IMG/VR virus record: IMGVR_UViG_3300035687_000001
Length of the DNA: 64,000 bases
Source of the DNA: a virus
Strand: one strand, 5' to 3'
Made by a program: the position numbers and the translations under genes. The notes beneath the pieces were generated by a model. It had not been told where the DNA came from and did not search any database. It worked only from the letters and a program-made list of their open reading frames with translations. The stretch's first letter is position 1. Every line of letters begins with the position of its first letter. This document shows positions 21,419-62,916 of the stretch, one piece after another.

Positions 21419-21834
21419 GACTGCTCCTCTCCGGCGTGCTTCCACCCGGCCAGCGGCGTCTCGGCGGCCCGGCGGCACGCGGCTTGGAGGTTCCAGGCGC
21501 GCACGGTCAGGGTGAAGGGCTCGTACTCCACCGGCTCGGCGCCGTCGCGGTAGTACCCATCGCCGTCGCGGTAGGCGCCCTGCACCATGACCTGGAAGTG
21601 GAACTGGTGGCCGCGCCGCGCGTCCCCGCTGTCCCGGCAGAAGGTGCACAGGCCGTCAGCCGTGCTGCTGGCCGCGCGCGAGCGCTCGTTCTCCTGGCAG
21701 CTGATGCACTTCACCTGGCCGGGCGTGAGCGGCCCGGTCGGCGCGTCGTAGTCGTCGACCCTGTTCACGGCTCGTGCAGCATGATCGAACTCTCGCGCGG
21801 AGTTGCGCAGCATCTCCTCGGTGGCCTCGTCCAT
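21415..21834 (-). CDS. hypothetical zinc-ribbon protein (139 aa)
   Basis: ATG 21834 overlaps stop of ParB-like gene by 1 nt; CISC...CTFC motif; track ORF 21415..22548 trimmed. Confidence 0.7.
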   Translation of the reverse strand: MDEATEEMLRNSAREFDHAARAVNRVDDYDAPTGPLTPGQVKCISCQENERSRAASSTADGLCTFCRDSGDARRGHQFHFQVMVQGAYRDGDGYYRDGAEPVEYEPFTLTVRAWNLQAACRRAAETPLAGWKHAGEEQS

Positions 21835-22643
21835 CACGCCAGCTTGAAGTGCTCGTCGGTCAGCTCGGGCAGCCCCTTGAGCACGAGGACCTTGATCTTC
21901 TTCCCCTCGCGCTTGGCGTTCCAGGCCTTGGTTCCGGCGGCCAGGAACGGCTTCACCGGCTTCTCGCCGCCCTTCTGCGCGTGGCGGATGATCAACGCCC
22001 GCAGGGCCAGCTCCGGATCGCCCTGGTGCAGCCCCTCGCCGCGCATGACGCCTTCCCAGAACTCCAGGGCCGTGGCCGCGTCGATCCGGAAGGTGAGGAA
22101 GTACAGGCAGCCGAACGCCGCCGGGAGCCCGCCGATCTCGTTGCGCAGCCCCATGCCGTAACGCACTGCCTGGCCGATCGCGTCGCGGTTCGCCACGACG
22201 TAGTCGACGATCTCGGTGTCGGTGGGCTTGTAGACCTCGCCCCGGACTTCTTCGACCTCCCAGAGCAGCGCGAGCCGGGCCACGGCCGAGGCCGATTTCG
22301 CCGACGGGACGTCGTGGCCCATCTTCAGCTCGTCGGACGCGGTCCGGCGCCGGTTCCGGTCCATCTTGAAGCGGTCTTCGCGCGGGATGCCCTCGATGAT
22401 GAAGAACTCGACCGTCACGCCCGCCTCGACCAGCGCTTCCAGCCGGTGCTGGCCGTCGATCAGGTGACCGTCCTCGTCGAACTTGATCGTCTCGCCGATG
22501 TTGGGGAACTGGTTGTTCCGCATGTCCCGGGCCATCTTGCCGACCCACGAAGGCGACGGTGAGCGGTTGTCGCTATTCGTGAGCAGCCACTTCTTCGCCA
22601 GCTGCGGTGTGACCGGCATCTTCTTGGCCCTCAGGTTGCTCAA
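21834..22643 (-). CDS. ParB N-terminal-domain (ParB-like nuclease) protein
   Basis: Track ORF; DEDGHLIDGQHRLEAL motif; TTG 22643 6 nt after GGAGG (alt ATG 22619); first gene after cassette P11. Confidence 0.8.
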   Translation of the reverse strand: MSNLRAKKMPVTPQLAKKWLLTNSDNRSPSPSWVGKMARDMRNNQFPNIGETIKFDEDGHLIDGQHRLEALVEAGVTVEFFIIEGIPREDRFKMDRNRRRTASDELKMGHDVPSAKSASAVARLALLWEVEEVRGEVYKPTDTEIVDYVVANRDAIGQAVRYGMGLRNEIGGLPAAFGCLYFLTFRIDAATALEFWEGVMRGEGLHQGDPELALRALIIRHAQKGGEKPVKPFLAAGTKAWNAKREGKKIKVLVLKGLPELTDEHFKLA

Positions 22644-34808: not shown

Positions 34809-34871
34809 CCTCCGGTGCGGCTCGTTCTTGCTGACAAGAATGAGATTACACTACCCACTTGGGTAGTGCAA
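34809..34871 (-). promoter_or_regulatory. promoter/operator/leader cassette P17 (-35-like hexamer abutting core)
   Basis: Box 34809-34820; leader hairpin ttcttg-ctga-caagaa 34825-34840; core 34851-34866; TTGCAC(34866-34871)-17-TAATCT(34843-34848); TGACCTGCG 34880-34888 just upstream. Confidence 0.55.
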
Positions 34872-37119: not shown

Positions 37120-37188
37120 CCTCCGGTGCGGCTCGTTCCGTGCTGACATGAGGAACTCTACACTACCTATCCGGGTAGTGTCCATACC
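37120..37188 (-). promoter_or_regulatory. promoter/operator/leader cassette P19 (weak -35)
   Basis: Box 37120-37131; leader hairpin gttcc..ggaac 37135-37156; core ctacctatccgggtag 37163-37178; TAGTGT 37160-37165; TGACCTGCG 37192-37200 upstream. Confidence 0.5.
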
Positions 37189-38209: not shown

Positions 38210-38272
38210 CCTCCGGTGCGGTCGTGGTGTGCTGACCTGACCCACACTACCCGTTCAGGTAGTGTGGGTCAA
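38210..38272 (-). promoter_or_regulatory. promoter/operator/leader cassette P20 (extended-palindrome subfamily)
   Basis: Box 38210-38221; 32-bp palindrome 38239-38270; TTGACC(38267-38272)-17-TAGTGT(38244-38249). Confidence 0.65.
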
Positions 38273-41069: not shown

Positions 41070-42017
41070 TCAGGCGGCCGTGGTGGCCTGCTCGTCGGTC
41101 TCCTCGGTCTTGGCCTGCTCGCGGCCGAGGATCATGTCAGCGGCCTTCTGGGCCTTCCCGGCGGCCACGATGATCGCGCGCGGGTCCTCCTTGATCGTCT
41201 TGATCCAGGAGGCCAGGTAGGCGGCCGAGTTGTCGAGAGTGGCCTGGATGCCGGTCTCGGCGCAGAGGAACGCGGCGCCCATCTCGGCGATCAGCTCCTC
41301 GCGGCCGTAGGCGTGGCTGCCGAAGGCGTTGCCCCGGCTCTCCTTACGGTCCAGGCGGTGCTCGGCGGCGGTCGAGTGGGTCAGCTCGTGGAAGAGGGTC
41401 GCGTGGTACTCGTCGAGCCCCTTGAAGCTCTCCACCGGCGGCATCGTGAGCACGTCCGTGGACCAGGTGAAGTGGGCCGAGTCGCCGCCGTGCTCAATGA
41501 CCGGCTTGGCGGCCCAGGCGTCCACCACGGACTGCGCGGCCGCGTGGCGCTCTTCGGCACTGGGGACCGGGCGGGCGACCGGGAAGGCGTCCTTGGGCAG
41601 CTTCTCGATGCCCTCGGTCTGGTCCAGGTTGAACAGGTAGAAGTGCTTGAGCAGCGGGATCATCTTCTTCTTGCCGGTCGCCTCGTCCTCGATCGGCAGC
41701 AGCTTCCAGAAGGTGACCAGGGTGCCCTTCTGCGTGCCCTTCTCGCCCTTCAGGCGGCCGCCAAGCTTGGCCATCTGGTTGAAGGTCAGCCAGTACGCGC
41801 TGCGGTAGTTCTTCTCGGCCTGCTCCAGGCCCAGCAGGATGGCGTTGACGCCCCGGTAGGCCTTGCGCGAGGAGAACGACTTCGGCGCGCCGGTGACGCT
41901 GTCCCACGGCTTGCTCCACGGCGCGGTGCCGTTCTCCAGCGCGGCCAGGATCTTGGTGGTGACGACGTCGTAGACATCGACCTTGGGCTTGCGGGTGGCG
42001 GTGGTCTTCGCGGCCAT
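41070..42017 (-). CDS. ardC: ArdC-type anti-restriction protein (ssDNA-binding N-domain + zincin metalloprotease domain)
   Basis: Track ORF; N-terminal DVYDVVTTKILAALENGTAPWSKPW and C-terminal HELTHSTAAEHRLDR motifs. Confidence 0.85.
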   Translation of the reverse strand: MAAKTTATRKPKVDVYDVVTTKILAALENGTAPWSKPWDSVTGAPKSFSSRKAYRGVNAILLGLEQAEKNYRSAYWLTFNQMAKLGGRLKGEKGTQKGTLVTFWKLLPIEDEATGKKKMIPLLKHFYLFNLDQTEGIEKLPKDAFPVARPVPSAEERHAAAQSVVDAWAAKPVIEHGGDSAHFTWSTDVLTMPPVESFKGLDEYHATLFHELTHSTAAEHRLDRKESRGNAFGSHAYGREELIAEMGAAFLCAETGIQATLDNSAAYLASWIKTIKEDPRAIIVAAGKAQKAADMILGREQAKTEETDEQATTAA

Positions 42018-45341: not shown

Positions 45342-45387
45342 GATCCCTCCAGGGGTGGTTCAGGATTGCGTTCTCGCAGGGTATGTT

Positions 45388-45406
45388 ACCCCGTAGCCTA
45401 CGGGGT
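45388..45406. promoter_or_regulatory. 19-bp palindrome ACCCCGTAG-C-CTACGGGGT in divergent control region
   Basis: 9+1+9 perfect inverted repeat between divergent CDS 44898..45341 (-) and 45422..45691 (+); TATCCT at 45410-45415 ends 6 nt before ATG 45422. Confidence 0.45.
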
Positions 45407-45421
45407 GAGTATCCTACGGTC

Positions 45422-45691
45422 ATGACTTACGACTCCGAGCGTGACGAGACCCCGAGCTACGAGGGCGAGGTGACCGAGGTCCGTGAGGGCATGCGCCTGC
45501 GGACCAAGGTCGTCATCGGCGCGCTCGGCGCCGGGGTCGGACTGGCAGCGACCGGGAACTGGATGCTGCTGATCATGCTGATCTGCGCCTACGTGACCTG
45601 GATGTTCGTGCGGACGTGGCTGGAGAAGCGCCGTCGGGACCGGACCTGGCGAGACGGCGGCGGAACGATCGAGCGAGGAGGGATCCTGTGA
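45422..45691 (+). CDS. small membrane protein (89 aa)
   Basis: ATG 45422 (MTYDSERDE..), two adjacent TM helices VVIGALGAGVGLAATGNWMLLIMLICAYVTWMF; no SD, possibly leaderless; GTGA-coupled to next CDS. Confidence 0.6.
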   Translation: MTYDSERDETPSYEGEVTEVREGMRLRTKVVIGALGAGVGLAATGNWMLLIMLICAYVTWMFVRTWLEKRRRDRTWRDGGGTIERGGIL

Positions 45692-46494
45692 AGCTGCCCG
45701 ATGGCGGCAAGCTCGTGTCCTGGGCGGGCTTCATCTTCGGCACGGCGGTGTCGGTCGCCGCGAACGTGCTGGCCGCCCGGATCCCGCCGGATCACGCCGC
45801 GCCGGACTGGGCGCCCCGCATTGACACCCAGCTGGGCTCGGCCGTGTGGCCGCTGGCTCTGCTGCTCTCGATCGAGGTGCTCGCCCGGGTCGCCTGGCCC
45901 AAGGGCCTCTGGTGGAGCGTCGCGCGCTTCGGCGGCCTGAGCATCGTGGCCAGCGGCGCGTTCGTCATCTCCTACCAGCACATCAACCACGTGCTGGCCT
46001 CGTGGGGTTACGAGTGGCTGAGTCAGGGCGTCGGCCCGCTGGTGATCGACGGCCTGATGGTCATCTGCGGTGTGGCGATGCTGGCCAAGCCGGGCACGCT
46101 GCGCAAGCTGCTCGCGGGCAAGGACGAGCCGGAGCAGGACGTCACCCCCAAGGCCCCGAAGTCGATGCTGCGGCCGGTGAACGAGTCGAACATCGTCGGT
46201 CTGGGCAAGCCCTCGCCTGCCGAGGAGTCGCTGACCCTGGCCGACCTGGAGCACGACGTCCCGGTGCAGCGCACCAACGGCCACCGGGTGTCGACCGCGC
46301 TGAAGAGCGGCCCGAAGGCGCCCGCGCGCCGGACGTCGGGCAAGAGCGACGAGGAGATCGCCGCCGTGCTGCGCGCGGAGATCGAGCGCCGGGAGAGCCC
46401 GGACCTCACCAAGCGTGGCGTGATGACGCGATTCGGCATCGGCGCGCCGCGCTGGGCCCAGATCACCGAGCTGCTGAAGAAGGAGGAGTCGTGA
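45688..46494 (+). CDS. DUF2637-like membrane protein with C-terminal HTH-like tail
   Basis: GTG 45688 5 nt after GAGGAGGG; four TM helices, AFVISYQHINHVLASWGY..GPLVIDGLMV signature; track ORF 45616..46494 trimmed. Confidence 0.75.
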   Translation: MKLPDGGKLVSWAGFIFGTAVSVAANVLAARIPPDHAAPDWAPRIDTQLGSAVWPLALLLSIEVLARVAWPKGLWWSVARFGGLSIVASGAFVISYQHINHVLASWGYEWLSQGVGPLVIDGLMVICGVAMLAKPGTLRKLLAGKDEPEQDVTPKAPKSMLRPVNESNIVGLGKPSPAEESLTLADLEHDVPVQRTNGHRVSTALKSGPKAPARRTSGKSDEEIAAVLRAEIERRESPDLTKRGVMTRFGIGAPRWAQITELLKKEES

Positions 46495-48548
46495 GCGGAG
46501 AGTCAAAGGGGGTGGTGAAGGAGATCCTCGGCACGGCGGGCGGAGTCCTCGTTGCCGAGGGGATCGGGCGGGGGTGGAAGCGCGGCCGCAGGCTGATGTT
46601 CCGCTGGCGGCGCGCGCTCACCCCGCTGTGGTTCGGGTTCCTGATCTTCCTCACCTGCGTCATCTGGCGCTGGCAGATCCCGCAGTGGTGGCCGGTCGTG
46701 CTGACCGTGCCGGTCGGCGGCCTGCTGCTGGCGATCTTCGGGCCGAAGCTGTCGGACCGCTGGTCCCGGGTGGCGATGGCGTTGGTGCCCAGCGGGCTCG
46801 ACAAGGGCAAGGACGGGGTGCTGGACCGGCTCGTGGAGCGGGTCTACTTCGGCACCTTGACGACCTACATCGGCACCTACATGGTCCTGCGGATCGTGGA
46901 CGGCTCCAGCTCGTTCTCGGGCTGGATGTGGCAGCTCGGCGTGGCGGGCTTCGGCGGCGCCTGGTGGTACCACCGCCGGGTGCGGGTCGCCGGGCGCGCC
47001 GACCGATTCGCGAAGAAGTGGCCGAAGCTGTCCGACAAGACGACCTGCCCGCCCCGGCTCGTGCCGCTGGTCAACTCGAAGGTGGTCGACGCGCGGGCGT
47101 ACGGGAAGACCTCGAAGCTGAAGATCCGGCTCGGCGAGGGCCACACCGTGGACTCGGTGGCGCACCTACGTGACGCGCTGGCGAGCTTCTTCGGCATGCG
47201 GCCGCAGTCGGTGTTCATCGCGCCGGACGAGGATCAGGCTCGCAATGTGATGATCACGTTCCTGCCGAAGGACCCCTGGAGCGGCAAGATCGCGCACCCG
47301 GTCTTCACCGGCGACGTCAAGCCGGGCGAGACCAGCCTGAAGTCGATGGGCAAGCGCTTCGCCATGGGTCTGTACGCCCACGGCGAACGCATCATGTACC
47401 AGCTCCAGCACACGCTCGTCGTCGGCGCGTCCGGCTCGGGCAAGTCGGGCTGGCTGCACTCACTGATGACGTGGCTGGTCAGCTTCTGCGACGTCGTGGT
47501 GGTCGGCATCGACATGGCCGCCGGGGCGACCCTGGGCGTCTGGCGCAAGACCCTGGCGCTCCCGCTCGCCGAGGAGATCGACGCGGCGATCATCATCCTG
47601 GAGCGCGTCTTCGGCGTGATCCGGGACCGGGAGGCCCGGCTGGGTCTGGCCTCGGAAGACGACGATGACGCCGAGGACAGCTTCGAGCCCTCGCGTAAGA
47701 CCCCGTGGCTGATCCTGGTGATCGACGAGTTCCCGGACCTGCTGGCCGAGGCGAAGGCGACCACGAAGTACAACGAAGACGGCAAGGCCGACGGCAACTA
47801 CCTGGCCTACGTCATCGCCCTGCTGTCGCGCATCGCGAAGAAGGCGCGCAAGTGCGGGGTCCGGATCGTCATCGCCTCTCAGAACGGGACCAAGGCGGAC
47901 CTGGGCTCGAAGGAGATGCAGGCCCAGCTGCGCGCGATCGTGGGTCTGAGCCTGGACCCGCAGCAGTCGAAGAACCTCTGGCAGAACGACATGCACCGGG
48001 GCTGGAACTCGACGAACCTACGGGACGGCCAGTTCCTCCTGAAGGACGACGAGCACGGGACTCCGGACCCGGGCAAGGGGTACTGGGTCGAGAACAAGGA
48101 CCGCCGGGACCTCGTCAAGAAGGTGGCGCCGAAGGGGTACCGCGAGGTCTATCTGGAACCGACCGCGTGGGCCATCCTCACCGGCGAGGTCGAGCCCGAG
48201 ACCGTCGAGGGTGAAGTCATCGCGGAGGAGACCTTCGGTCCCGAGTACGCGGTCCTGGAGTACCTCCGGGTCGAGGCCAAGGACGGGGCGAAGGTGGAGA
48301 CCATCTCCGACGTCCTGACCCGGGCCAAGGAGGAGACCGGCGGGTCCGGGCCCGGTACCAGCCGGGCGACGATCTACCGGCACCTGGAGAAGCTGGAGAA
48401 GGGCGAGCTGGTCATCCGCAACGGCGGCGGCGAGGGCTTCTGGAAGGCGGCCGCTGTCACGACCACCACGCCGGTGCCCGAGCCCCGTACGGAGATCGAG
48501 GGGCCGGTGGTGATCGCCAGCATCCAGGGCGAGGCGATGGCGGAGTAG
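46491..48548 (+). CDS. TraB/FtsK/SpoIIIE-family DNA translocase (N-terminal TM, ATPase, C-terminal wHTH)
   Basis: GTG 46491 after AAGGAGGA, GTGA-coupled; Walker A GASGSGKSG, Walker B LILVIDEFPDL, VRIVIASQ; C-terminal SRATIYRHLEKLEKGELV wHTH; track ORF 45846..48548 trimmed. Confidence 0.85.
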   Translation: MSGESKGVVKEILGTAGGVLVAEGIGRGWKRGRRLMFRWRRALTPLWFGFLIFLTCVIWRWQIPQWWPVVLTVPVGGLLLAIFGPKLSDRWSRVAMALVPSGLDKGKDGVLDRLVERVYFGTLTTYIGTYMVLRIVDGSSSFSGWMWQLGVAGFGGAWWYHRRVRVAGRADRFAKKWPKLSDKTTCPPRLVPLVNSKVVDARAYGKTSKLKIRLGEGHTVDSVAHLRDALASFFGMRPQSVFIAPDEDQARNVMITFLPKDPWSGKIAHPVFTGDVKPGETSLKSMGKRFAMGLYAHGERIMYQLQHTLVVGASGSGKSGWLHSLMTWLVSFCDVVVVGIDMAAGATLGVWRKTLALPLAEEIDAAIIILERVFGVIRDREARLGLASEDDDDAEDSFEPSRKTPWLILVIDEFPDLLAEAKATTKYNEDGKADGNYLAYVIALLSRIAKKARKCGVRIVIASQNGTKADLGSKEMQAQLRAIVGLSLDPQQSKNLWQNDMHRGWNSTNLRDGQFLLKDDEHGTPDPGKGYWVENKDRRDLVKKVAPKGYREVYLEPTAWAILTGEVEPETVEGEVIAEETFGPEYAVLEYLRVEAKDGAKVETISDVLTRAKEETGGSGPGTSRATIYRHLEKLEKGELVIRNGGGEGFWKAAAVTTTTPVPEPRTEIEGPVVIASIQGEAMAE

Positions 48549-48552
48549 GGCC

Positions 48553-48566
48553 GTTTGCGCAGGTCA
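48553..48566 (-). repeat. TGACCTGCGCAAAC repeat, inverted copy
   Basis: Plus strand gtttgcgcaggtca; exact reverse complement of 48674-48687. Confidence 0.7.
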
Positions 48567-48590
48567 ACGGCCCATGAGCGGCTTAGAGTG

Positions 48591-48630
48591 CAGAAGGCCC
48601 CGGGTGTGCTCGACCACCCGGGGCCTTCTG
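48591..48630. terminator. strong hairpin terminator after translocase gene
   Basis: Perfect 16-bp stem cagaaggccccgggtg/cacccggggccttctg, 8-nt loop. Confidence 0.75.
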
Positions 48631-48673
48631 CTGTCCGCCCTGCGAAGAAGGACATCTTAGCCTAACACGCGCC

Positions 48674-48687
48674 TGACCTGCGCAAAC
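48674..48687 (+). repeat. TGACCTGCGCAAAC repeat, direct copy
   Basis: Exact 14-mer. Confidence 0.7.
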
Positions 48688-48753
48688 GTGCCTCGCGCGC
48701 CTGCGAACACGTACGTACGTACTGCATGCGCACACGCTACGTGCGCGCTGCGC

Positions 48754-48777
48754 GTCTCACGTCGCATGTCTCACGTC
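48754..48777 (+). repeat. tandem GTCTCACGTC repeat (14-nt period)
   Basis: gtctcacgtcgcat gtctcacgtc. Confidence 0.65.
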
Positions 48778-48842
48778 ATGCGTAACACGCGCAGGCGCGG
48801 ACGCTGCGAGAACACGAGATTGATCAAATATGCCCAGGTCAC

Positions 48843-48856
48843 TGACCTGCGGAAAC
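48843..48856 (+). repeat. TGACCTGCGGAAAC repeat, direct copy (1 mismatch)
   Basis: 13/14 match to 48674-48687. Confidence 0.65.
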
Positions 48857-48911
48857 TCTCAGAGGCCATCCTGGGGGTCTCGGCCCGTCTCGCTCCGGGT
48901 CGCGATCATGA

Positions 48912-48944
48912 AAGAGCCCCCGGCACCGTCTCCCGGGGGCTCTT
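48912..48944. terminator. hairpin terminator after minus-strand CDS 48960..49235
   Basis: 12-bp stem aagagcccccgg/ccgggggctctt, 9-nt loop; TTT follows on minus strand. Confidence 0.7.
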
Positions 48945-48959
48945 CTCGACGCAGCGTGA

Positions 48960-49235
48960 CTAGCTCTGGTCGTCCCAGCGGAACAGCCAGCGGCCGTTGC
49001 CGTAGTCCAGCACGGCACCGGGGATCCCGTACTGAGCGTGGGTCTCGGTCAGGATCCGGGTCACCACGGGACCGGCCTGCTGGCACAGGAAGGCGTCGAC
49101 CTTGCGTCCCCAGACCCAGCCCATGATCCCGCTGGGATCGCGGTACCGCTCGAAGGTGACGTGGAACAGAGCGTCCTGCAACCACTCGGAGTCGCTCTGG
49201 TCCCGGGTCGTGTCCCGCACGGCGTCGAGTTCCAT
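48960..49235 (-). CDS. hypothetical protein (91 aa)
   Basis: ATG 49235 (MELDAVRDTTRDQ); weak RBS, alt GTG 49250; track ORF 48960..49481 trimmed. Confidence 0.55.
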   Translation of the reverse strand: MELDAVRDTTRDQSDSEWLQDALFHVTFERYRDPSGIMGWVWGRKVDAFLCQQAGPVVTRILTETHAQYGIPGAVLDYGNGRWLFRWDDQS

Positions 49236-49294
49236 GATGAGGTGTTCCACGCTCGGCGCGAGACCCAGGTTGGGTCCGGTCCCAGTACCGGCGC

Positions 49295-60887: not shown

Positions 60888-60949
60888 CCTCCAGTGCGGC
60901 GGTGTTCCTTGACCTCTCCAACACTACCCAACCGGGTAGTGCGTGTCAA
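60888..60949 (-). promoter_or_regulatory. promoter/operator/leader cassette P31
   Basis: Box 60888-60899; core 60924-60939; TTGACA(60944-60949)-17-TAGTGT(60921-60926); -35 overlaps terminase stop. Confidence 0.6.
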
Positions 60950-62916
60950 CGCCTCCGGCGGTGCGGGTTGCGCGCGGGGTTCAGGCCTCCGGCGCGCACC
61001 CGCGACCGGCCGCCGGGGATCAGCTGGTCGAAGACCTGCCGGTCGGCCTCCTGGCGCTGGTACGGGTTGAAGCCGCCCTGCTGGCCGGTCACGATGTTCA
61101 TCTCGCGCAGCATGCCCGCCTGCCAGTTCCGGACCTGCTCGCCGAGGATGGTCCAGACCACTTCCATCATGCACCTGGCCACGTCGTCATGGACAACGGG
61201 CCCGGTGTCCTGGTGCACGACGCGGTTGGTGGTCGCGGTGGTCTTCAGCTGGAGGAACTTCAGCTCCAGCTCGGCGGTCTCGTACCAGGGCGCCTCGACC
61301 CAGCCCTGGTTGATCGCGACCTTGAAGCACTCGGCCACCTGCCAGTTGTGCTTGGCGTCGGACTTCTGCTCGAAGATCGTCATGCGCTTCGGCGCGCGGT
61401 TCTGCCGGACCTTGCGGTTGAGCCGCTGGATCGGCATGGCCGAGTTGTGCTGGTCGAAGGTGAACTCGTCGATCTTGAAGCCCCAGATGATCTCCCACAG
61501 CTCGACGTCCACGACCTGGATGTAGTCGATCGTGTGGTCGGGGAACTCGGCCGGATCCCAGTGGTGGAGCAGATCGAAGCGGCAACGGAGGAAGCCGTCC
61601 TCGTGCTCCTCGGCGTGGCCGACCGCGAGGCCGAAGTTGTCGTTGACCTTCGATGGGTCCGCGTGTCCTTTGTAGAACGTCGTGAGGTTCTTGGCCGTGC
61701 GGGTCATCGCGAGATCGCTCTGGAAGATCGCCTCGACCTTCTTCGGGTCCAGGTAGGCGTCCACGACCGACTGCCAGTGCGAGCGCCGCTCGACGGCGAA
61801 GGTGTCGGGGTTGGCCCGCTCCAGCTTCTCCATCCGCTCGTCGTACTCCTGGATGGCGCCCTTGAGCCGCTGGAAATTCGGGTGCGGGCGCTCCAGGTAC
61901 TCCCCGAGGTCGCCGGTGAACTCCGCCGGGAAGACGGGCAGCATGTGCGCGTCTTTCCAGTCGTAGTAGATCTCCCAGCTGGCCAACTGGAGCATCATCA
62001 TCTCGGGGTACTCGGGGTTGCCCTCCTCGTCGAAGGCCAGCGTCATCTCCCAGTTCGCGTAGAACTGGCCGATCTGCTGCCAGGGGCTCGACGGATCGAT
62101 GATGAAGCCGTCCATCTTGAACTGGTCGAGCGACGGCGTCGCGCTGCCGTAGACCTCTTCCGCCGACCGCCCTGCGCCCGAGGGCACCACGTGCGCCATC
62201 TCGTCGAAGCCGAGCCCGAAGGATGCCGGGCCACGCGCGGACATCAGCGTGGCCTCCTTCGGCTGGATCGTGAAGGTCGCCATGTCCCGCGCGGTGTTGA
62301 TCCCGCGCTGGTTCTGCCGCCGCAGCCGGACGAAGTCGTGCGGGGCGTAGATGGTCAGGTTCTCGCCGAGCGACCGGGAGATGTACTTGGCGAAGCACGG
62401 GGCGCCCTGGATGACGTTGACGACGTCCTTCCAGAGGTTCTCCCGGGCCTGCTGCTTCTTCCCGGCGTAGATGAACATCGCCAGCTGCTTGTCGCGGTCG
62501 ATCCCGTAGTACTCCTGGGGATCGCCCTTGGCCATGAAGCGCCAGAGCACGTAGGCCATGGCCAGCGCCGAGACGTAGCCCTTCCCGGCGCGGCGGCCGA
62601 GGACCAGCAGGACCTCGCGGAAGTAGAAGTAGCCCTTGAGCCGGAGCGAGGCCATCCGCTGGCGGATCTTCGGCACGATGCCGTTGTTCCCGTGGCGATC
62701 GAAGGAGTCCTCCCACTCGTCGATGACCATGTGGTCGTACTCGGTGAGGAGGTCGTTGCGCAGGAAGATGACCTTGAGCAAGGTCGCCTGACGCGGGTAG
62801 AGTTGCCCCCGGCCACACCAGCGCGGGCTGATCGCGAAGGTGATGGGGTCAGGAACCGGCAGCCCCGTGAACGCTGCGAAGTCCACGGGGCTGAAGGCCG
62901 GAGGCGAGAGGGTCAT
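60946..62916 (-). CDS. terL: terminase large subunit
   Basis: ATG 62916 in ATGA overlap with 62913..63500; Walker A-like LGRRAGKGY, Walker B GFDEMAH, C-terminal nuclease-type region; first 113 codons of track ORF 60946..63255 are R/G-rich shadow. Confidence 0.9.
   Translation of the reverse strand: MTLSPPAFSPVDFAAFTGLPVPDPITFAISPRWCGRGQLYPRQATLLKVIFLRNDLLTEYDHMVIDEWEDSFDRHGNNGIVPKIRQRMASLRLKGYFYFREVLLVLGRRAGKGYVSALAMAYVLWRFMAKGDPQEYYGIDRDKQLAMFIYAGKKQQARENLWKDVVNVIQGAPCFAKYISRSLGENLTIYAPHDFVRLRRQNQRGINTARDMATFTIQPKEATLMSARGPASFGLGFDEMAHVVPSGAGRSAEEVYGSATPSLDQFKMDGFIIDPSSPWQQIGQFYANWEMTLAFDEEGNPEYPEMMMLQLASWEIYYDWKDAHMLPVFPAEFTGDLGEYLERPHPNFQRLKGAIQEYDERMEKLERANPDTFAVERRSHWQSVVDAYLDPKKVEAIFQSDLAMTRTAKNLTTFYKGHADPSKVNDNFGLAVGHAEEHEDGFLRCRFDLLHHWDPAEFPDHTIDYIQVVDVELWEIIWGFKIDEFTFDQHNSAMPIQRLNRKVRQNRAPKRMTIFEQKSDAKHNWQVAECFKVAINQGWVEAPWYETAELELKFLQLKTTATTNRVVHQDTGPVVHDDVARCMMEVVWTILGEQVRNWQAGMLREMNIVTGQQGGFNPYQRQEADRQVFDQLIPGGRSRVRAGGLNPARNPHRRRR

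Follow-up and report, generated by a model that had tools for sequence, protein, structure and literature searches.

The question raised by positions 48549-48959 of the 64,000-nucleotide stretch analysed here (the window) is what a long gap between genes is doing directly behind the stop codon of a predicted DNA translocase, and whether it serves that translocase as the clt loci of Streptomyces plasmids serve TraB, as the first-pass annotation proposed. The gap is non-coding and has a strong hairpin on either side of its repeat block. GC3 periodicity is absent from it, and a protein-coding role for its sole long open reading frame (48688-48963) was rejected on that ground and because the frame is broken by a 10-nt indel among relatives. 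Two larger stretches left uncalled by a crude gene caller do show GC3 periodicity, so that this gap is, as initially claimed, probably the largest truly non-coding stretch of the window. Its GC content, described at first as lower, is indeed 0.64 against 0.676 in the window, but the difference is marginal.

The setting is that of a phage. Conjugative plasmids and AICEs are the home of a clt of the Streptomyces type, but the window belongs to an uncultured actinophage: it carries a large terminase gene and about 137 small genes, nearly all on one strand, a large terminase is also found in one relative, the relatives are IMG/VR viral contigs, and the plasmids of PLSDB show no DNA similarity to it. 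On these grounds the plasmid-type setting initially assumed has to be abandoned. Deposited phages likewise gave no DNA match, and a scan of GTDB representative genomes gave no close relative. Entry genes of plasmid style lie nearby, namely those for ArdC and a ParB-like protein, and relatives carry DUF932.

A cassette of three genes (45422-48548; Table 1), the only one on the plus strand of the window, ends immediately before the gap. A gene of 81-89 codons occupies the first position of the cassette in all relatives, and homologues of the second gene product in L006, L238 and L240 match PF10935 clearly. The third gene encodes an FtsK/SpoIIIE motor, as indicated by matches to Pfam FtsK_SpoIIIE (E 5.9e-8) and to the PHROG 'FtsK/SpoIIIE-like' (E 7e-16), by a Foldseek match of the predicted model to FtsK motors (E 1.8e-18, TM 0.67-0.70) and by a GSGKS P-loop visible in the translation. 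Hydrophobic helices at residues ~40-130 make up an N-terminal membrane region, and the models place a winged helix-turn-helix (wHTH) of the order H-H-H-beta-beta at residues 578-646, with a weak profile match to HTH_20 in the window protein and matches to HTH_IclR, TrmB or HTH_11 in homologues; its recognition helix, SRATxYRxL, is conserved among the homologues. Motor, membrane anchor and modelled wHTH together bear out the assignment of this neighbour as a TraB/FtsK-type translocase. Its kinship with plasmid TraB is nevertheless remote, as the best NCBIfam match, plasmid_TraB, scores 53.2 bits against a cut-off of 800, short of the equivalog level, and tblastn searches found only Streptomyces plasmid FtsK-domain proteins of 23-26% identity among plasmids and no match in 50,697 deposited phage genomes. 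An identity of the wHTH with Z-alpha is no more than a lead, the domain being a generic winged helix (best Foldseek E 1.2e-2) whose matches include Z-alpha domains but also Fur and PadR; FtsK gamma is absent among its top structural matches. PADLOC returned no defence-system match for the cassette.

Table 1. Features of the translocase cassette and of the gap behind it (window coordinates; a dot marks features assigned to neither strand).
Feature	Position	Strand	Basis or remark
Cassette gene 1, small predicted membrane protein, 89 aa	45422-45691	+	GC3 gene call; weak DUF6703 match
Cassette gene 2, DUF2637-like membrane protein, 268 aa	45688-46494	+	Weak PF10935 match
Cassette gene 3, TraB/FtsK-like dsDNA translocase, 678 aa; alternative start 46494	46512-48548	+	Profile and structure matches
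Site A, 14-mer TGACCTGCGCAAAC, inverted, 5 nt past the translocase stop, in a small hairpin (48548-48573)	48553-48566	-	Sequence
Hairpin T1, 17-bp perfect stem, likely translocase terminator in the window clade	48590-48631	.	-41 kcal/mol on either strand
Site B, 14-mer TGACCTGCGCAAAC	48674-48687	+	Conserved in L002, L003, L007, L008
Alternating purine-pyrimidine tract, 42 nt, runs of 16, 15 and 11 nt, includes the ACGT repeat	48707-48748	.	Run scan
Left repeats, two GTCTCACGTC (48754-48763, 48768-48777), unit TCTC[AG]YG, 14-nt spacing	48754-48777	+	Enrichment in relatives
Single-copy core CGTAACACGCGCAGGCG, 17 nt; family consensus CG-GTAAYGYGCGCAG-RCG	48781-48797	+	Conservation
Right repeats, two CGAGA (TCTCG on minus), inverted relative to the left repeats	48807-48819	-	2-3 [CT]GAGA copies here in nearly all relatives
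Conserved GATCA	48822-48826	.	Relatives
Site C, palindromic pair TGCCCAGGTCA-C-TGACCTGCGGAAAC	48831-48856	.	Sequence
Two GTCTCG, 10 nt apart, shortly before T2	48877-48892	+	Sequence
Hairpin T2, 12-bp stem, likely bidirectional terminator	48912-48944	.	-25 to -28 kcal/mol
First gene converging from the minus strand, 96 aa; delimits the element on the right	48960-49250	-	Gene call

All of the repeats that the first-pass annotation named are present where it placed them, including the ACGT run and the CTGCGA(G)AACACG pair. The 14-mer exceeds chance, with three matches in 64 kb, all within the gap, where 0.5 would be expected in the whole window; besides Sites A and B these include the TGACCTGCGGAAAC copy at 48843-48856, which is paired with a fourth, degenerate half-site, TGCCCAGGTCA, at 48831-48841. 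The 10-mers GTCTCACGTC and TAACACGCGC are not significant on count alone, and the GTCTCA unit is validated by its conservation rather than by its number. As a repeat family TAACACGCGC (48663-48672 and 48783-48792) dissolves on inspection, one of the two copies being merely part of the single-copy core. No region of the window is denser in TCTC[AG] than the gap, which holds two TCTCA and two GTCTCG in direct orientation, two inverted CGAGA, and the 14-mer three and a half times. The alternating purine-pyrimidine tract contains the two longest such runs of the window; bases in alternating runs of at least 9 nt account for 12.4% of the gap compared with 0.7% of other intergenic and 1.4% of coding DNA in the window, and across 27 loci alternating runs take up 9.9% of gaps versus 1.4% of flanks.

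Comparison with relatives, a check suggested along with the original proposal, gave a positive result: the gap is a strongly conserved non-coding element that follows the translocase in a family of uncultured actinobacterial phages. In most of ~25 relatives, with translocase identities of 35-94%, the stop codon is followed in the same order by TCTC[A/G] repeats, the core, inverted [C/T]GAGA, GATCA, a hairpin or palindrome and a terminator, and this architecture and its orientation are retained whatever lies downstream. In all of the lineages examined, the element sets in at the stop codon of the translocase or reaches over it. The core is found with at most 2 substitutions in the 13-nt GTAAYGYGCGCAG down to ~41% translocase identity, the exceptions being a 1-nt deletion in L024 and a few loci where it is degenerate or absent (L005, L006, L023). 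TCTCA/TGAGA is 20-fold enriched in gaps over flanks (76 observed, 3.8 expected, in 22 of 22 loci) and GTCTCA/TGAGAC 30-fold (22 relatives). The family-wide unit is not the 14-mer, real as that is, but TCTC[AG]/[CT]GAGA arranged around a single 17-nt core, and the 14-mer TGACCTGCGNAAAC is confined to a clade with ~150-kb genomes. Among close relatives the 233-nt block 48663-48895 is 89-91% identical, compared with 82-86% for third codon positions of the translocase and 48-70% for adjacent non-coding DNA, and the block evolves as slowly as the translocase gene.

The tie to the translocase is equally evident from where the element occurs. A composite-pattern scan of IMG/VR matched only translocase-bearing phages, and among phages retrieved through the neighbouring YdjM-like gene the element is present only together with the translocase. 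A looser pattern scan of IMG/VR yielded at least 120 chance matches and no new look-alike. Three relatives carry an HNH homing-endonuclease cassette immediately ahead of GATCA, and this repeated insertion independently marks the element as conserved and probably essential. The element is real and under purifying selection, and it is tied to the translocase gene both physically and in evolution. In L015 and L241 the recognition helix is altered to P[TQ]STLYRDL, and the GAGA and GTCTCG repeats are lost, with two TTCCCAC in their place; these sequences hint that helix and repeats may co-vary, the change amounting to one evolutionary event. Within the ~150-kb-genome clade, the 14-mer at the translocase stop runs in direct orientation in L003, L057 and L238, where it overlaps that codon, and is inverted in L239, and such flips of orientation with the sequence kept are the signature of a DNA-binding site. 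Site C has its counterparts in a perfect 19-bp palindrome in L057, a near-perfect 33-bp double 14-mer palindrome in L240 and a C6/G6 hairpin at the same position in a clade with ~60-kb genomes.

The hairpins reported at both sides of the repeats were recovered, with stems of 17 bp (T1, perfect) and 12 bp (T2); a consensus terminator scan called neither because both lack a T-run. The T1 stem is kept in relatives and its sequence varies. Closer to the core, the flanking stems likewise vary by lineage and are still complementary (GTCTCAGG/CCTGAGAC, TCGCACGGACG/CGTCCGTGCGA, TCTCGTCCG/CGGACGAGA), and a second hairpin of fixed position takes different sequences (C6/G6, CCCCAGG/CCTGGGG, the 14-mer palindrome). 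This behaviour fits an RNA hairpin or one extruded from DNA better than it fits linear sites, and the conserved block might encode a structured non-coding RNA, as part of a long 3'-UTR on the mRNA of the translocase or as a small RNA whose end is set by the terminator downstream. On that reading, which we consider unlikely, TCTC and GAGA repeats would pair with one another in alternative ways about a conserved loop, and the RNA would control the expression or stability of a potentially toxic translocase, or act in trans; the GAGA repeats are able to pair with the TCTC repeats on the left or with those on the right, and the T2 terminator loop retains a TCTC motif, (A)TCTC[AG/C], in both clades. 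The two clades differ in how well they suit it. In the ~60-kb clade folding z-scores are -2 to -4.8 and no terminator intervenes between the translocase stop and the element, which is co-transcribed there because the first terminator, with a plus-strand U-tract, lies beyond it. In the window clade, however, folding is no better than for shuffled sequence (z -0.4 to +1.5), a hairpin of -41 kcal/mol stands ahead of the block and no plus-strand promoter was detected, and the orientation flips of the 14-mer are incompatible with a fixed RNA fold. Nor do the stems favour a strand, since neither wobble pairs nor folding energy show plus/minus asymmetry and stem scores are 162.5 with G.U allowed versus 163 with A.C allowed. 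The covariation term of RNAalifold is weak (-0.2 to -0.8 kcal/mol), with no strand-specific wobble to accompany it, and Rfam gave no match at the gathering threshold, the best being sub-threshold terminator look-alikes.

A protein other than the translocase might also be the reader of these sites. The 9-mer TGACCTGCG occurs six times in 64 kb, always between genes, and two of its copies adjoin, on the upstream side, paralogous minus-strand promoters; its presence at three intergenic sites outside the gap suggests that a separate regulator may bind it. In Streptomyces plasmids traB acts as a kil gene and has to be kept in check by a repressor (PMC4447253). The gap could be a cluster of operators and promoters at the junction of convergent transcription, where a Kor-like repressor or activator of the phage, bound to the 14-mers or to the palindrome, would govern either read-through or a short antisense RNA that is read from the minus strand across the 3' end of the translocase gene. 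The palindrome of Site C is typical of a dimeric regulator, and a minus-strand extended -10 motif, TGnTAnnnT at ~48658-48668, recurs in five out of six close relatives as read from the alignments, but a consensus promoter scan found nothing in the gap region, and the core, aligned by eye to sigma-70, extended -10 and ECF-type promoters, was rejected as a promoter, none being consistent across lineages. Moreover, the promoter region of the translocase itself (45342-45421) contains neither repeat family of the gap and has a different palindrome, CCCCGTAG-C-CTACGGGG, and regulation from the 3' end of a gene would be unusual. An operator cluster would cover the clade-specific 14-mer while leaving out the family-wide core and TCTC/GAGA arrays, and we hold it to be quite improbable.

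With a short repeat arrayed in inverted orientation on the two sides of a unique, conserved core, the gap resembles iteron origins in its geometry, and it could be a DNA site of the phage that lies beside the translocase only by history, whether an iteron origin, a multimer-resolution or recombination site, or cos/pac. On pWTY27 the RepA protein binds a ~105-bp inverted repeat composed of 7-8-bp repeats (PMC3583192). The gap shares with this repAB iteron region the arrays of 7-8-bp repeats in both orientations and a long imperfect inverted repeat within a ~300-bp non-coding stretch; unlike iteron origins, it has no adjacent rep gene or other Rep-family neighbour and no AT-rich segment for unwinding (GC 64%), and it is linked to a translocase. 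No initiator, partition (ParAB), integrase or Xer-type gene adjoins the gap, and the origin, partition site or attachment site offered initially as alternatives thus gain no specific support; a tRNA-linked attachment site was dismissed after a tRNA scan without a match at threshold. Compensatory change maintains the symmetry of the stems, as in cruciform or fold-back sites, and Z-prone alternating tracts are enriched in the gap. Repeats aimed at a central core also recall the polarity of KOPS toward dif. As in FtsK with KOPS/dif and SpoIIIE with SRS, an FtsK-type motor with a C-terminal winged helix is found here together with oriented motifs that switch polarity at a central site. Unlike those motifs, the ones in the gap are clustered within ~150 nt rather than genome-wide and skewed (in the window, the coding strand confounds any strand skew of GTCTC), and no Xer-type site or recombinase was identified here. 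The core bears a partial resemblance to one XerC arm; a dif/Xer-like core was rejected as the second arm is absent. An unrelated prophage, L026, bears on cos: just upstream of HNH-terS-terL, the usual position of cos, it has a partial look-alike that comprises the same 17-mer, GTGAGAC in four copies and GATCAA. L026 shares no protein with the window, however, and the resemblance may for that reason be coincidence. The large terminase gene is 12 kb from the gap in the window and ~6 kb away in L006, the ~60-kb contigs begin in various places, and none of the related contigs has the element at an end. A site kept here by history would leave the strict co-occurrence with the translocase unexplained, and in sum we regard such a site as improbable.

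The reading that we favour, with a probability of about 40%, is that the gap is a cis-acting, clt-like nucleoprotein or assembly site for the TraB-type translocase of the same cassette, a reading that draws on analogy with the plasmid systems. In clt regions the sequences that the respective TraB recognises are 8-bp direct repeats (PMC4447253), the loci of pIJ101 and pJV1 combine direct and inverted repeats, and the clt of pWTY27 comprises 16 bp inside traA and 159 bp beyond it, with 7-bp direct repeats and inverted repeats (PMC3583192). The gap is like these loci in its place at the 3' end of an FtsK-like tra gene or overlapping it (it begins 5 nt past the stop, a position comparable to that of the pWTY27 clt), in a span of roughly 50-200 bp or more, in its multiple short (5-9 bp) direct and inverted repeats, and in its partner, a translocase that combines an FtsK motor with membrane helices and a C-terminal wHTH. 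At a Streptomyces-type clt the cognate TraB binds through helix alpha-3 of its wHTH, and the locus confers cis-dependent conjugal transfer. The membrane-anchored phage translocase, a hexamer if it is like TraB, would bind short repeats through its C-terminal winged helices, with the TCTC[AG]/[CT]GAGA units in inverted arrays around the 17-nt core as the family-wide candidates; in the ~150-kb-genome clade the 14-mer may be bound by the translocase or by a partner protein. The motor would then load on the phage DNA at the element and pump the double-stranded genome. Both the binding of the translocase to the element and the purpose of the pumping we infer.

The original clt model finds support in position, repeats, type of translocase and conservation, and has to be revised as regards the plasmid setting and the conserved unit, which across the family is not the 14-mer. 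The gap also departs from the Streptomyces loci in several respects, as it lies in a phage genome, its repeats differ from any described TRS, and it has a second hairpin or palindrome module and a unique, near-invariant 17-nt core. The core counts against a clt because recognition of 8-bp repeats leaves it unexplained, and we know of no single-copy, near-invariant core of 17 nt in the described clt loci, nor of an established role for clt in phages. Furthermore, the 14-mer is clade-specific and the recognition helix is not, so the wHTH cannot account for both repeat families.

FtsK-like genes are commonly annotated in actinophages, and the Streptomyces phages Mandalore, Naboo and Geonosis are similar in encoding FtsK-like proteins, for which the available portions of the reports mention no associated cis element. 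Here such a gene forms part of a conserved cassette paired with a conserved non-coding element. A doubtful extension of the clt-like reading is that these actinophages possess a working dsDNA transfer module of the Streptomyces type, in which a TraB-like pump and Spd/DUF2637-like membrane partners would act together with a clt-like site. It is just as doubtful that, as 'conjugative phages', they would move their genomes between hyphal compartments or neighbouring cells without virions, a lifestyle that the ArdC, ParB-like and DUF932 entry genes would fit. The 17-nt core, the TCTC/GAGA arrays and the 14-mer can all be synthesised, which makes the question of the substrate of a phage FtsK/TraB protein testable, and should the element prove to be a clt, DNA pumping of the conjugation type would extend to the viruses of mycelial bacteria.

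Every repeat that the first-pass annotation had listed in the non-coding gap directly 3' of the translocase gene (48549-48959) was recovered by reading 48300-49200 and by a repeat finder, and a fourth, degenerate half-site was found that forms an AGGTCA-C-TGACCT palindrome with the third copy of the 14-mer. The 14-mer occurs nowhere else in the 64 kb, where 0.5 matches would be expected for the whole window, and the counts of the 10-mer repeats in the gap are not significant by themselves. The two strong hairpins have perfect stems of 17 bp (-41 kcal/mol) and 12 bp (about -25 to -28 kcal/mol), and neither was called by a consensus terminator scan because both lack T-runs. As had been proposed, the gap is probably the largest truly non-coding stretch of the window, since it has no GC3 periodicity, its sole long ORF is disrupted in relatives by a 10-nt indel, and the other large "gaps", left by a crude gene caller, do show such periodicity. 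The lower GC content is real but only slight (0.64 vs 0.676 for the window). On the minus strand, a TGnTAnnnT extended -10 within 48651-48668, kept in five of six close relatives, would drive a short RNA through the first hairpin, antisense to the translocase 3' end; in this region (48591-48655 and 48651-48668) Rfam places a sub-threshold 'sodF sRNA' match (27.8 bits vs a gathering score of 46). At 48707-48748, two alternating purine-pyrimidine (Z-prone) runs, longer than any others in the window, lie contiguously. Across 27 loci the gaps are enriched about 7-fold in such runs, and the enrichment relative to other intergenic DNA is about 17-fold.

In all lineages examined, the translocase stop is followed by a non-coding gap. 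In the ~60-kb phages this gap measures about 170-240 nt, and in the window's clade about 340-440 nt. Anchoring the loci on a shared 13-mer revealed a common six-part architecture that can be traced down to about 41% translocase identity; not all loci share the core, since a few lineages (L005, L006, L023) have a degenerate core or none. An unbiased k-mer search that set 22 gaps against their own flanks ranked TCTCA/TGAGA first (20-fold enriched, 76 observed vs 3.8 expected, 22/22 loci), and GTCTCA/TGAGAC was enriched 30-fold; the densest TCTC[AG] region of the window is the gap itself. Thus, the GTCTCACGTC tandem belongs to a family-wide repeat, whereas TAACACGCGC does not hold as a repeat family, one copy being simply the core. 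A 24-kb prophage that is unrelated and encodes a serine recombinase has a look-alike just upstream of HNH-terS-terL (L026:10278-10472), with the same 17-mer core, four GTGAGAC and GATCAA; no proteins are common to this prophage and the window, and the look-alike is either a coincidence or a shared module.

Features of the element, its relatives and other sites (window positions unless prefixed; L, locus outside the window; %, translocase identity)
Feature	Location	Orientation or detail
14-mer TGACCTGCGCAAAC	48674-48687	direct
14-mer, exact copy	48553-48566	inverted
14-mer, one mismatch	48843-48856	
Half-site TGCCCAGGTCA	48831-48841	abuts third 14-mer copy
GTCTCACGTC	48754 and 48768	tandem
TAACACGCGC	48663 and 48783	two copies
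Element part 1		TCTC[AG] units, one to three
Element part 2	48781-48797	near-invariant core CG-GTAAYGYGCGCAG-RCG
Element part 3		[CT]GAGA units, two or three, inverted
Element part 4		GATCA
Element part 5		hairpin, or AGGTCA/TGACCT palindrome
Element part 6		bidirectional terminator, TCTC again in loop
14-mer at translocase stop codon	L003, L057, L238	direct, overlapping
14-mer after translocase stop	window, L239	inverted
14-mer palindromes	L057; L240	perfect 19-bp; near-perfect 33-bp
HNH_3 insertions	L005:2750-3400; L006:8033-8683; L239:5357-5947	61%; 47%; 63%
CACTACC-N6-GGTAGTG promoters	34849-34868; 37161-37180; ~38240-38260	minus
Leading-region-type genes, further coordinates	21834-22643; L006:1872-2882	
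CG-rich repeats 3' of remote homologues	L074:2215-2290; L079:4363-4440; L080:3901-3960	

Close relatives share 89-91% identity in the block 48663-48895; their translocases are 89-93% identical overall and 82-86% at third codon positions, and adjacent non-coding DNA 48-70%. A composite-pattern scan of IMG/VR gave matches solely in translocase-bearing phages, and of the phages retrieved through the neighbouring YdjM-like gene, only those with the translocase carry the element. Homing-endonuclease insertions are expected at unusually conserved targets. Three lineages have an HNH_3 homing-endonuclease cassette at the identical point, right after CGAGATT (equivalent to window ~48821), where it takes the place of the hairpin/14-mer module; each cassette brings its own -10 box, 17 nt after GAGATT (TATAGT, TAAAGT or TAGTAT).

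Conservation of the repeats among relatives had been raised as a check in the first-pass annotation. For the 14-mer it is restricted to the ~150-kb clade: the window clade and L057, L238, L239 and L240 have the sequence, L015 and L241 have half-sites, and within the ~150-kb clade the 14-mer is kept while its orientation changes between relatives. An operator or promoter cluster gives the best account of the 14-mer, but as a reading of the gap it is distinctly unlikely. Elsewhere in the window, a minus-strand promoter family carries a CACTACC-N6-GGTAGTG palindrome between its -35 and -10 boxes, preceded by CGCAGGTCA at the 34.8-kb and 37.1-kb copies and followed by CAGGTCA at the 38.2-kb copy. 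This family looks like a phage operator system, and it accounts for the restriction of TGACCTGCG to intergenic DNA. The cassette promoter region, conserved in relatives down to 47% identity, contains a perfect palindrome, CCCCGTAG-C-CTACGGGG (45389-45415), just upstream of a TATCCT -10 box and is a candidate Kor-like operator distinct from the gap repeats; as this box lies 6 nt before the ATG, the cassette mRNA is probably leaderless.

Evidence for base-pairing comes from the stems flanking the core, whose sequences vary between lineages while complementarity is kept, from the second hairpin, constant in position and different in sequence, and from a folding advantage over shuffled sequence in the ~60-kb clade (z from -2 to -4.8). 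We conclude that the symmetry of the element is under selection. However, it is unlikely that the element encodes a structured 3'-UTR RNA or sRNA: Rfam gives no match, RNAalifold covariation terms are weak, both strands fold equally well, and tolerating G.U or A.C in the stems gives equal scores (162.5 vs 163). Moreover, in the window clade folding does not exceed that of shuffles and the -41 kcal/mol hairpin lies between gene and block, no promoter for the block was found in the window, and the 14-mer flips orientation between relatives. None of the pairing, folding, Rfam and strand tests shows RNA to be the level of selection.

The window is not a plasmid, contrary to the context implied at first: it holds ~137 small genes, almost all on the minus strand, and a large terminase (ORF 60946-62916, phrog_2). 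No DNA matches were found in PLSDB, deposited phages or GTDB representative genomes. All 79 translocase homologues are metagenomic, on contigs that form two size clusters (about 58-63 kb; about 147-157 kb), and the cassette is common to both size classes; 17 related loci are IMG/VR viral contigs, and a Terminase_6N gene lies about 6 kb from the translocase in one relative. Plasmid 'leading-region'-type genes lie beside the cassette, namely an ArdC-type gene (41070-42017), a ParB-like protein and, in relatives, DUF932. The sole sizeable plus-strand cassette, present in all relatives examined, precedes the gap and encodes an 89-aa protein, a DUF2637-like membrane protein and the 678-aa translocase, which combines an FtsK motor (Pfam 5.9e-8; Foldseek E 1.8e-18, TM 0.67-0.70) with hydrophobic helices at the N-terminus and a winged helix at the C-terminus. 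The translocase's best NCBIfam match is plasmid_TraB, at 53 vs 800 bits far under the equivalog cut-off. FtsK-like genes, of no established role, have already been described in Streptomyces phages; by tblastn, the translocase matches none of these. The wHTH (residues ~570-650, 48220-48470) bears a weak Z-alpha likeness (HMM E about 1e-3; Foldseek E 2e-2, TM 0.78-0.83, with Fur and PadR matching equally well) and retains a helix-3 Tyr and a wing Trp. Remote homologues (24-29% identity; 72-74% GC contigs) have alternating CG-rich repeats directly 3', of the types CTACGCGCGC..., CGCGCAG... and a repeated GCGCAC reminiscent of the pJV1 clt unit CCGCACA[CG][CG].

The clt loci described to date are positioned at the 3' end of the tra gene or overlap with it, contain short direct repeats together with inverted repeats and are bound by TraB through its wHTH (PMC3583192; PMC4447253). 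The element is like them in position, repeat content and partner protein (TraB architecture), but fails on one feature of membership: a clt resides on a plasmid or AICE, and the replicon here is a phage. Two further defining features of clt are TraB binding and cis-acting transfer. The recognition helix SRATxYRxL is conserved family-wide, as are the TCTC/GAGA units. In the L015/L241 sub-lineage P[TQ]STLYRDL replaces this helix, and two TTCCCAC stand in for the lost GTCTCG pair and GAGA repeats (L015:6270-6300, L241:5270-5300), a single event hinting that recognition helix and repeat unit may co-vary. Given the match to clt in position and repeats, the TraB architecture and this hint, we favour the gap as a candidate clt-like nucleoprotein site for the translocase, with a probability of about 0.4. 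A simple clt model leaves the unique core and the clade-specific 14-mer unexplained, and that the gap is instead an origin, resolution or packaging site is quite unlikely. It would be a long shot to propose that the phage DNA spreads independently of virions, in a conjugation-like manner, in mycelial hosts; what can be filed as new is a cis element that is both conserved and defined and that is coupled to a TraB-like cassette of uncultured actinophages.
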